Source: a phage
Strand: one strand, 5' to 3'
Sequence record: PZ452614.1
DNA length: 39,092 bases
Positions 5,992 through 7,805 of this stretch are shown one piece after another. Made by a program: the position numbers and the translations under genes. The notes under the pieces are model-generated. The model was not told the origin of the DNA. It ran no database searches and saw only the letters and a program-made list of their open reading frames with translations. Each line of letters opens with the position of its first letter. The stretch's first letter is position 1.

Positions 5992-6192
5992 ATGGAAATC
6001 ATTACACGTATTGATGCCGCAAAGCGCGGACTTAAACGCTATTACACCGGAAAACAATGTAAGCACGGACATGACAGTGAACGCTGGGTTTACAACGGAC
6101 ACTGTGTTGAGTGCACCATGGAATCAAACCGTCGCATCAGGGCAGAGATTAAGCAGATCATGATTAATTCCTCCCCACAACACTCAAGCTGA
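5992..6192 (+). CDS. Small putative zinc-binding protein in the cII-equivalent position
   Basis: ATG at 5992 (MEIITR…); C-K-H-G-H … C-V-E-C motif; preceded by operator-like site 5897..5911. Confidence 0.45.
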   Translation: MEIITRIDAAKRGLKRYYTGKQCKHGHDSERWVYNGHCVECTMESNRRIRAEIKQIMINSSPQHSS

Positions 6193-6207: not shown

Positions 6208-7023
6208 ATGAGCAGACATGCAACAGATTGGGCTTGGGAGACAGATCCAGGCAGCTCATCATTAAAGCTCATACTGCTCTCGATGGCTGACAGAGCCGAT
6301 GAATATAACCTCTGCTACCCCAGCATAGAACGCCTCGTTAAAGACACTTGCCTGAATAAAAAAACCGTGCAGGCCGGGCTTATATCGCTCATGAAAATGG
6401 GGCTTATTTCAGATACCGGAGAGAGAAAGGGAGCGACAAAAAGAGTGCGGGTTTTCTCTCTTAATATAACCAAAAACGGGAACATTAAAGGCAACCGAGA
6501 GGGGGTCAATGAACCCGAAAACGGTAATGTTACCGAAAACGGGAATATACCCAAAAACGGGATGTTGAATGATCCCAAAAACGGGATGTTGAATGATCCC
6601 AAAAACGGGATCCAGAACCAGTCATATAACCAGTCATTTAACCAAGAGAGGGAGAGCAGGACAAAAAACGGGGATTCTGTGCATCATGACCCCGGCGCAA
6701 ACAACGCCGTGATGAATAACTTTGTTCCTCTTGGTGGGCCAGGGCAATTAGGCAAATTTGTCATGCATGAACAATGGCAGCCATCAGATGACTTTCTTCG
6801 GAAAAGCTCATTGCAGGGGATCTACCTGGACAGTCTGCCAACGGCACAGGAACTTGCAGAGTTCAGAATTTACTGGATGGCTGAGGGTAAGGCATACCAT
6901 CAGGCACAGTGGGAGCAGAAGCTGGCAAGGCGGCTGCAGATTAGCAGACAGAAGCAATCAACATTACCTGATAACAACGTTCCGCACTGGAACAGCCCTG
7001 AAGCATGGGAGGATTTCTTGTGA
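6208..7023 (+). CDS. Replication initiator (lambda O-like role) with N-terminal HTH; ori iterons embedded in the coding sequence
   Basis: N-terminal …LKLILLSMADRADEYNLCYPSIERLVKDTCLNKKTVQAGLISLMKMGLI…; internal tandem repeats; translationally coupled to the P-like gene. Confidence 0.7.
   Translation: MSRHATDWAWETDPGSSSLKLILLSMADRADEYNLCYPSIERLVKDTCLNKKTVQAGLISLMKMGLISDTGERKGATKRVRVFSLNITKNGNIKGNREGVNEPENGNVTENGNIPKNGMLNDPKNGMLNDPKNGIQNQSYNQSFNQERESRTKNGDSVHHDPGANNAVMNNFVPLGGPGQLGKFVMHEQWQPSDDFLRKSSLQGIYLDSLPTAQELAEFRIYWMAEGKAYHQAQWEQKLARRLQISRQKQSTLPDNNVPHWNSPEAWEDFL
6514..6610. repeat. Candidate origin of replication: five iterons CC(C/G)AAAA(A)CGG(G/T)
   Basis: Repeats start at 6514, 6533, 6550, 6574, 6598; the last three on a 24-bp period with identical cccaaaaacgggatgttgaatgat units. 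Confidence 0.65.
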
Positions 7024-7805
7024 ACAACGTTTTTACCGCGATACAAAACCGTGACGGAGAAGCCCTTTCTCGCATGTCAGGTTATGAGCATCAGTACACC
7101 AACAATGACAACGTGGTGAACATGTCAGCAGAGAGGCTTGTTGATGCCCTTTTCAAACAGCTGAAACAACTGTTTCCGGCGGCAGTGGTAACCAACCTGA
7201 AGACGCCAGAGCAGGAAGTTGCTGCAAAACAGCAGTGGATTGCTGCGTTTGCCGAAGGGGGGATCCGAACCCGTGAACAGGTTTCTGCTGGTATGCGCCA
7301 CGCCCGCGCCAGTGAGTCTCCGTTCTGGCCGTCGCCAGGGCAATTCATCAAGTGGTGTAAAGACAGCAAGATGGTTCTTGGCGTCACCATTGACGATGTG
7401 ATGGCGGAGTTTCACCGGTACAGCAAGGAAAAAAGTTTATATCCTGGTGGTCCCGAAAGATTCCCGTGGCGGCATCCGGTTATGTACTGGGTCGTATGTG
7501 ATACCCGCCGTGCAATGTATCAGCGCCAGCTTAGCGAGATTGAGGTTGAGAAACACGCGCGCAGGCTGCTCGATGATTGGGCGAAAAAGGTGGCTTCCGG
7601 ACAGCAGATACCCGATCCGGTGATCAGCATACAGGCAAAGCCAGAACCCATGAGTACGCCTCCGGACACAGGGAGAGATGTTTACCATCCACCAGGGCGA
7701 AGTTTCGGGTGCATGCCTAACGCCGCCACCCTGGGGGGAATAACACCGGCGCAGTGGCTGATGGAGGAATACAGGCGAGGAAAGGCAGCAGGATTTATCA
7801 AGTAA
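7005..7805 (+). CDS. Lambda P-like replication protein (DnaB helicase loader)
   Basis: …RQWIAAFAEGGIRTREQVSAGMRHARASESPFWPSPGQFIKWCKDS… closely parallels lambda P as recalled; alternative GTG start at 7020 has a better Shine-Dalgarno (GGGAGGA). Confidence 0.85.
   Translation: MGGFLVNNVFTAIQNRDGEALSRMSGYEHQYTNNDNVVNMSAERLVDALFKQLKQLFPAAVVTNLKTPEQEVAAKQQWIAAFAEGGIRTREQVSAGMRHARASESPFWPSPGQFIKWCKDSKMVLGVTIDDVMAEFHRYSKEKSLYPGGPERFPWRHPVMYWVVCDTRRAMYQRQLSEIEVEKHARRLLDDWAKKVASGQQIPDPVISIQAKPEPMSTPPDTGRDVYHPPGRSFGCMPNAATLGGITPAQWLMEEYRRGKAAGFIK

Follow-up and report, generated by a model that had tools for sequence, protein, structure and literature searches.

Replication origins embedded in the initiator gene are textbook cases in phages lambda and P22, and in the classical lambdoid arrangement the initiator has an origin-specific half that can be exchanged against its loader-specific half. 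The lambda ori, in the central part of gene O, comprises four iterons (ATCCCTCAAAACGAGGGA, at O codons 117-145) and an AT-rich tract, and is followed by gene P. The annotated origin (rep_origin) of P22 lies in gene 18, where four iterons of sequence TTTACCNNATCGGTAAAAC are followed by two copies of ACAAAAGACAATAT. Here we analyze a repeat array in the replication initiator gene (positions 6208-7023, plus strand) of PZ452614.1, a phage DNA of 39,092 nucleotides (nt) that is called the window below. A preliminary description of this DNA had proposed a lambda-like origin within the gene. Comparison with related loci supported that proposal, and from it we infer origin activity: the array appears to be the binding-site array of the initiator and part of the replication origin, on the lambda plan, with a probability of roughly 0.8. 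This interpretation follows from two results, namely that the array is retained in relatives and that its motif is conserved as DNA across reading frames in homologues.

By its sequence, the window is a phiV10-like phage of E. coli (Uetakevirus, related to epsilon15). Its replication genes (6208-7805) are 99.3% identical to those of Escherichia phage phiV10, and several other E. coli podoviruses and prophages are 97-99% identical to the window. The initiator gene is carried by 424 of 5,426 complete E. coli genomes. It encodes 271 residues, has 99.3% DNA identity to phiV10 gp43-gp44, and has as its best PHROG phrog_1032, 'replication initiation protein' (E=2.9e-107), with full-length homology. 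Pfam identified an N-terminal HTH_36 winged helix at residues 18-67 (E=1.8e-10) and a C-terminal DnaT-like domain at residues 184-252 (E=1.1e-15; coding part 6757-6963, plus strand); between them is a linker of about 95 residues that is rich in N, G and P and contains the repeats. Its N-terminal DNA-binding domain, presumably the reader of the iterons, comprises residues 1-86 and is encoded at 6208-6465 on the plus strand. A single-sequence AlphaFold2 model of the protein was unusable (mean predicted local distance difference test score, pLDDT, 35.7).

The array occupies the linker-coding middle of the gene, between the HTH_36 and DnaT-like domains. The five copies claimed earlier for 6514-6610 were found exactly there, on the plus strand: CCCGAAAACGGT at 6514-6525 (encoding PENG), ACCGAAAACGGG at 6532-6543 (TENG), and three copies of CCCAAAAACGGG at 6550-6561 (PKNG), 6574-6585 (DPKNG) and 6598-6609 (DPKNG), with start-to-start spacings of 18, 18, 24 and 24 nt. 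The claimed count stood as far as it went, and the array also has two further plus-strand copies. One is an outlying first iteron, ACCAAAAACGGG, at 6469-6480, 45 nt upstream of the next copy; in a Superficieibacter locus (L100), codon 88 likewise carries a copy, there a perfect CCCAAAAACGGG. The other is a degenerate iteron-like copy, ACAAAAAACGGG, at 6661-6672, which is mutated to TKSG, TKTG or TKIG in close relatives and is probably non-functional. Tandem Repeats Finder (TRF) bore out the exact 24-nt period of the last three copies, with 100% matches, and the translation contains the peptide repeat described before, NEPENGNVTENGNIPKNGMLNDPKNGMLNDPKNGIQ. The copies likewise agree with the consensus proposed for them, but the optional A written into it is unneeded, a constant-length alignment, NCC(A/G)AAAACGG(G/T), being sufficient. 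The array thus comprises six direct repeats of about 24 bp with the core CCCAAAAACGG, and every site has an A5 tract. Iterons 4 to 6 (the three CCCAAAAACGGG copies) have ATCCC/GGGAT inverted arms about an asymmetric centre, AAAAAC; iteron 5 is flanked by GATCCC...GGGAT, and iteron 6 lies in GATCCCAAAAACGGGATC, with inverted arms of 6 bp. The clustering of these sites is far beyond chance: the core CNAAAACGGK matches seven times in 39,092 bases, six of these inside 139 nt, whereas dinucleotide-preserving shuffles gave a mean of 0.77 matches and none of 100 shuffles reached seven. A search for the 12-mer pattern with one mismatch gave five matches against 1.12 expected, a number that no shuffle reached.

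The same repeats could be explained differently, as a slippage-prone xPKNG peptide repeat in a disordered linker, with selection acting on the protein and the origin located elsewhere. The window itself offers something to this explanation: all of its copies are read in frame 0, as P/T-K/E-N-G, in a linker of N/G/P-rich composition, and in relatives the copy number varies freely, always in frame. Homologues at greater distance argue otherwise. They were collected by scanning one genome per species, which yielded 80 loci, 68 of them with intact open reading frames (ORFs), at 40-87% identity in the N-terminal domain; they come from Enterobacterales, Vibrio, Pseudoalteromonas, Marinomonas, Acinetobacter, Burkholderiaceae, Erythrobacter and Halodesulfovibrio. 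In these homologues the N-terminal domain is always directly upstream of the motif array. When the 68 intact loci were searched with CCCAAAAACGGG, allowing up to two mismatches, 164 sites were found in the 330 nt after the domain (7.3 per kb); the rest of that strand had 23 (0.12 per kb) and the opposite strand 11. The motif is thus enriched about 60-fold at one position of the locus, which counts against the peptide explanation.

The frames in which these sites are read speak more directly. Although 104 of the 164 are in frame 0 (PKNG-like), 39 are in frame 1 (xQKR(D/N)) and 21 in frame 2 (VPKTE-like), and the flanks are alike in every frame, AA-N4-CCCAAAAACGG-N-A...TT. A locus of Vibrio salinus (L101) illustrates this within one gene: its five sites, spaced 17, 17, 23 and 24 nt, encode SPKNG, IPKTE, SQKR, SPENG and SPKNG. 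The central bases also change the encoded amino acids radically (KN to KI, IY or KF, in phages GF-2, H20 and AP22) while CCC-N6-GG(G) persists. Roughly, the family consensus is AA-N4-CCC-N6-GGG-N4-TT, and many relatives keep only CC...GG; spacing across the family ranges from 17 to 59 nt. Sequencing frameshifts are an unlikely source of the frame-1 and frame-2 sites, since these number 60 and lie in intact ORFs. Because the same motif occurs in three frames with the same DNA flanks, selection appears to act on the DNA and not on the peptide; for the family, this rules out the peptide as the conserved object. The peptide-repeat explanation is already largely refuted by the three-frame comparison, and we regard it as very unlikely.

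Iteron centres differ by clade, being AACAAC or AACAAT in most of the Acinetobacter loci (L119-L163) and AAAAAC elsewhere, and the putative recognition-helix region differs in parallel (DRKTVLKII versus LNKKTVQ). This suggests co-variation of the recognition-helix region with the iteron centre, a pattern that is confounded by phylogeny and was not used as evidence.

Close relatives show what becomes of the array over short distances. An initial scan of viral contigs gave only near-identical relatives, which were used for copy number and not for divergence. The close relatives comprised 80 IMG/VR contigs and, in addition, 11 relatives from GenBank and RefSeq whose gene was translated; their N-terminal domains are nearly identical. 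All 80 IMG/VR relatives keep the array, with three to nine iteron-like sites each (most commonly six), and so do all 11 GenBank/RefSeq relatives; copy number alone varies. Absence of the repeats from close relatives had been named beforehand as grounds for abandoning the origin interpretation, which stands in view of this retention. The 24-nt unit occurs one to six times in the relatives, the 18-nt unit one to four times and the 12-nt unit (see below) two or three times. Every change keeps the frame, and the initiator is mostly 263-295 residues long. The in-frame variation in iteron number parallels that between lambda and the Shiga toxin (Stx) phages, which have four and six iterons, respectively, with 13 extra residues in O (PMC7466680).

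The layout resembles that of lambda in several respects. Both phages place repeats of one orientation in the part of the gene that encodes the initiator linker, spaced about 18-24 nt in the window and 20, 24 and 23 nt in lambda. The iterons are similar in shape (ATCCC-AAAAAC-GGGAT in the window, ATCCCTC-AAAAC-GAGGGA in lambda). In both, iteron number varies among relatives and adds residues to the protein, and a P-family loader gene is next. The lambda P homologue that had been claimed to follow the array gene is well supported: at 7020-7805 on the plus strand, a gene of 786 nt encodes a helicase loader of this family (Pfam Phage_lambda_P, E=1.5e-56). Its GTG start overlaps the TGA stop of the initiator (GTGA), and both phiV10 and RefSeq E. 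coli annotations give its counterpart the same length, 786 nt. The differences from lambda are as distinct. There are six iterons and one decayed copy instead of four; the initiator combines HTH_36 with a DnaT-like C-terminal domain instead of Phage_rep_O with the lambda-O C-terminus; and three 12-nt units at 37.5% GC stand where lambda has a tract of 20-25% GC. The iterons of the window also share one reading frame, whereas the spacing of the annotated lambda iterons puts them in different frames of O, a likeness to the cross-frame sites of the homologues. P22 offers a further parallel, in that its iterons are followed by two copies of a short repeat as those of the window are followed by three 12-mers. 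P22 gp18 and the window initiator are both 271 residues long, the iterons of both origins lie in linker-coding DNA, and some members of the present family have a C5...G5 palindrome resembling the CCCCCTTACCCCCTAAAGGGGGA of P22. P22 differs in its iteron sequence, in that gp18 belongs to Phage_rep_O, and in that its partner protein is the DnaB-type helicase gp12 and not a P-type loader.

Three phages with N-terminal domains 44-52% identical to that of the window have an array at the same place: Edwardsiella phage GF-2, Vibrio phage H20 and Acinetobacter phage AP22. In the 'protein O' gene of GF-2, three copies of ATCCCAAAATTGGGAT at 24 nt precede a lambda-O C-terminus, and P is the next gene. 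The H20 array consists of five CCCGAAAACGGT copies at 24 nt, and the C-terminus there is unrelated. In AP22 the sites are CCCAAAAACGGA, CCCATATACGGG and CCCAAATTTGGG, and the next gene encodes a DnaB-like helicase. No origin is annotated in the stretches of these three records that were examined. GF-2 'protein O' (L016, 1501-2343) is a natural chimera, in which the C-terminal domain of lambda O is attached, immediately past the origin, to the N-terminal domain and iterons of this family; phrog_391 groups such chimeras, matching residues 1-154 of the window protein and 140-292 of lambda O. Judged from these arrangements, the N-terminal domain and the array travel as a module, and the rest of the initiator or its helicase partner is swapped.

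The C-terminal domain of the initiator is homologous to part of a host protein. Residues 180-265 match residues 85-170 of the E. coli replication-restart protein DnaT (primosomal protein I), which form its C-terminal single-stranded-DNA-binding three-helix domain (PDB 4ou6, 6aep and 9zbt; E about 1e-20), and this domain is all that the two proteins have in common: residues 1-179 (HTH_36 and linker) have no DnaT counterpart, and there is no full-length similarity. The protein is, on this domain evidence, a phage initiator with a borrowed DnaT-like domain and not a DnaT orthologue. An iteron replicon of the plasmid type (Rep_3 or RepA-pi) also fits poorly, Pfam giving no Rep_3 match and the iterons being inside the gene, not outside it.

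A second conserved DNA element abuts the array. Three 12-nt units, GAACCAGTCATA, TAACCAGTCATT and TAACCAAGAGAG, lie at 6615-6650 on the plus strand (TRF period 12, 2.4 copies); phiV10 has one unit more. In 47 of 65 loci, RAAYC occurs two or three times at spacings of 12-13 nt within the 48 nt after the last iteron, where its density, 40 per kb, compares with a background of 6 per kb. The family consensus of the 12-mer is about GAATCTatCAat. This element too is read in more than one frame: two Acinetobacter loci, for example, translate ...GGAATCTnnCAAAGAATCT... as RNLSKNL and TESFKES, respectively. The 12-mers are a candidate unwinding or helicase-loading site, held with less confidence than the assignment of the iterons, and they could be the element that replaces the AT-rich tract of lambda. 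In five loci, from Edwardsiella (L168, L169 and L173), Serratia (L175) and Plesiomonas (L157), a C5-6...G5 palindrome such as CCCCCCTAGCCCCCAAGGGGGAGGGG comes after the 12-mers, about 60-80 nt past the last iteron. These palindromes resemble the one that closes the annotated P22 origin on its right side. All that the window has is a 5-bp CGGGG/CCCCG pair at 6668-6695.

Several observations weigh against an origin of the lambda type at this site. As all window copies share one frame, the argument for DNA over peptide rests on the relatives. No experiment on the origin of this phage group was found in the searchable literature, and the phiV10 record carries no rep_origin annotation across the stretch examined. 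Pfam PF04492, Phage_rep_O, has no match in the initiator (E<=0.01), whereas lambda O and P22 gp18 do match, and hhalign of a 36-sequence profile of the N-terminal domain against lambda O gave a probability of 4.4%, which is not significant. No lambda-like AT-rich tract lies beside the array: the 40 nt to the right of the last iteron have a GC content of 37.5%, compared with 22.5% on the same side in lambda and 25% in P22, and the gene has its lowest-GC 40-mer (30%, at about 6450-6490) to the left of the array. The sites share one orientation, all being on the coding strand, and RNA from 6460-6680 folds better than shuffled sequences (z = -3.18). As for the protein, a remote link was found, in that the N-terminal 145-150 residues match phrog_678, phrog_345 and phrog_270, which lambda O or P22 gp18 also match. 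The earlier label 'O-like gene' is therefore apt for architecture and for remote PHROG-level similarity, but not for membership in Pfam Phage_rep_O.

The missing AT-rich tract also favours a second explanation, that the repeats are bound by the initiator for autoregulation, copy control or handcuffing, with strand opening elsewhere in the genome. Iterons of plasmids have control roles of this kind. What makes this unlikely in our judgement is that a second conserved element, the three 12-mers, abuts the array across the family, as a second element does in the P22 and lambda origins, and that the window offers little else: TRF found just two other short repeats in it, both two-copy, of 21-24 nt and unrelated sequence, and only one stray core match lies outside the initiator gene. 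No DnaA boxes were found within 1.2 kb of the array, and their total in the window equals chance.

The coding-strand orientation of the sites and the folding of the RNA would also be compatible with a motif that acts in messenger RNA (mRNA), through inter-unit hairpins or as a pause or stability signal, or with one that acts as terminator-like hairpins in antisense. On the minus strand at 6558-6601, a consensus scan flagged terminator-like matches, namely GGGAT(N8)ATCCC hairpins with a T5 run after them, which arise from successive 24-nt units. However, the inter-unit hairpin needs the ATCCC/GGGAT arms, and many relatives do not have them (for example AGTCCCAAAAACGGAAC) while the core and its spacing persist; a shared fold is not maintained at spacings of 17 to 59 nt, the stems, of six pairs with three G-C, are weak, and no Rfam family matched. 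An RNA role for the repeats is accordingly highly improbable, and the minus-strand hairpins are probably a by-product of the inverted arms of the iterons.

If the array is indeed part of the origin, a sequence of events can be proposed by analogy with lambda and P22. Early rightward transcription would produce the initiator and the P-like loader. The N-terminal winged helix of the initiator would bind the iterons, probably as dimers, and form an O-some-like complex on the A5-tract DNA. By the same analogy the DNA nearby would then open, either at the 12-mers (6615-6650) or in the region of lowest GC content (6436-6490). The DnaT-like C-terminal domain might hold the single strand, dock the P-DnaB complex, or both, and the P homologue would deliver host DnaB. 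Repeat slippage would alter the number of iterons and leave the frame intact.

Taken by itself, the locus is apparently an unannotated example of an origin of the lambda/P22 type and introduces no new principle. It does provide a concrete origin candidate for the phiV10-type (Uetakevirus) phages, which serve as reporter and typing phages for O157, and a signature (winged helix, then CCCAAAAACGG sites in any frame, then 12-mers) for locating origins in prophages of other genera. A more speculative extension, which we consider rather doubtful, is that the CCCAAAAACGG iteron and the triple 12-mer, tied to HTH_36 initiators, define a very broad class of origins that is neither annotated in the records examined nor found in the searchable literature, present in prophages of Enterobacterales, Vibrio, Pseudoalteromonas, Marinomonas, Acinetobacter, Burkholderiaceae, Erythrobacter and Halodesulfovibrio. 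In this class the origin would move with the DNA-binding domain as a single cassette, with at least three arrangements downstream (a DnaT-like C-terminus and P; a lambda-O C-terminus and P; a DnaB-like helicase gene next). Such origins would work without a classical AT-rich tract, and in phiV10-type phages the DnaT-like domain would capture or open the strand at the 12-mers.

Two candidates for outside support were set aside. A search for minimal plasmid replicons with the module gave 22 hits, which were whole phage genomes deposited as 41-kb 'plasmids', prophages on megaplasmids or short linear fragments, and none was independent evidence of a replicon. The Rac prophage YdaU/oriJ system was considered as an experimental anchor, but K-12 YdaU is annotated as DUF1376 and appears to have no HTH_36 N-terminus.

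The supplied ORF track also includes a minus-strand ORF of 95 residues at 6315-6602, opposite the array. It might be proposed that this is a real gene served by the repeats, for it is open for 95 codons and one GenBank record (CP025713.1, phage YDC107_2; L003, 1698-1940, minus strand) annotates the antisense ORF over the array as 'putative membrane protein'. The ORF begins with TTG, has no PHROG match, and overlaps a plus-strand gene with full-length homology; moreover, iterons in different frames in the relatives would scramble its peptide. Its openness has a compositional explanation. The plus strand is 16% T here, so the minus strand rarely forms stop codons and the frame stays open, and antisense frames of at least 80 codons are open over the linker in 52 of the 68 relatives. 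To treat the ORF as an artefact, as had been done at the outset, is therefore reasonable, and we give almost no credence to its being a gene. In record CP025713.1 the initiator and P genes are, in addition, annotated in fragments. The spurious antisense 'membrane protein' is one of two recurring annotation errors that are corrected by this analysis; the other is the name 'primosomal protein I/DnaT', which many records give to the whole initiator gene on account of its DnaT-like C-terminal domain.

Some other records containing this region deserve mention. In PP488543.1 (phage BP9, 138 kb) and PP350014.1 (phage PH444, 115 kb, UNVERIFIED) a phiV10-like immunity and replication block lies near one end. 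The genus given for BP9, Vequintavirus, is unrelated to phiV10, and the two records are probably chimeric assemblies or prophage contamination. Two E. coli 'plasmids' of 41,027 bp, NZ_CP079768.1 and NZ_CP079771.1, have an identical N-terminal domain and are near the size of phiV10-type genomes (39-41 kb); a possible explanation is that the cultures sequenced contained circular phage DNA replicating outside the chromosome. Directly upstream of the initiator, at 5992-6192, is an ORF of 66 residues with a CxHG...CxxC pattern of Cys and His residues (KQCKHGHD...GHCVEC). It matches phrog_1081, a family of unknown function, and stays beside the initiator in close relatives.

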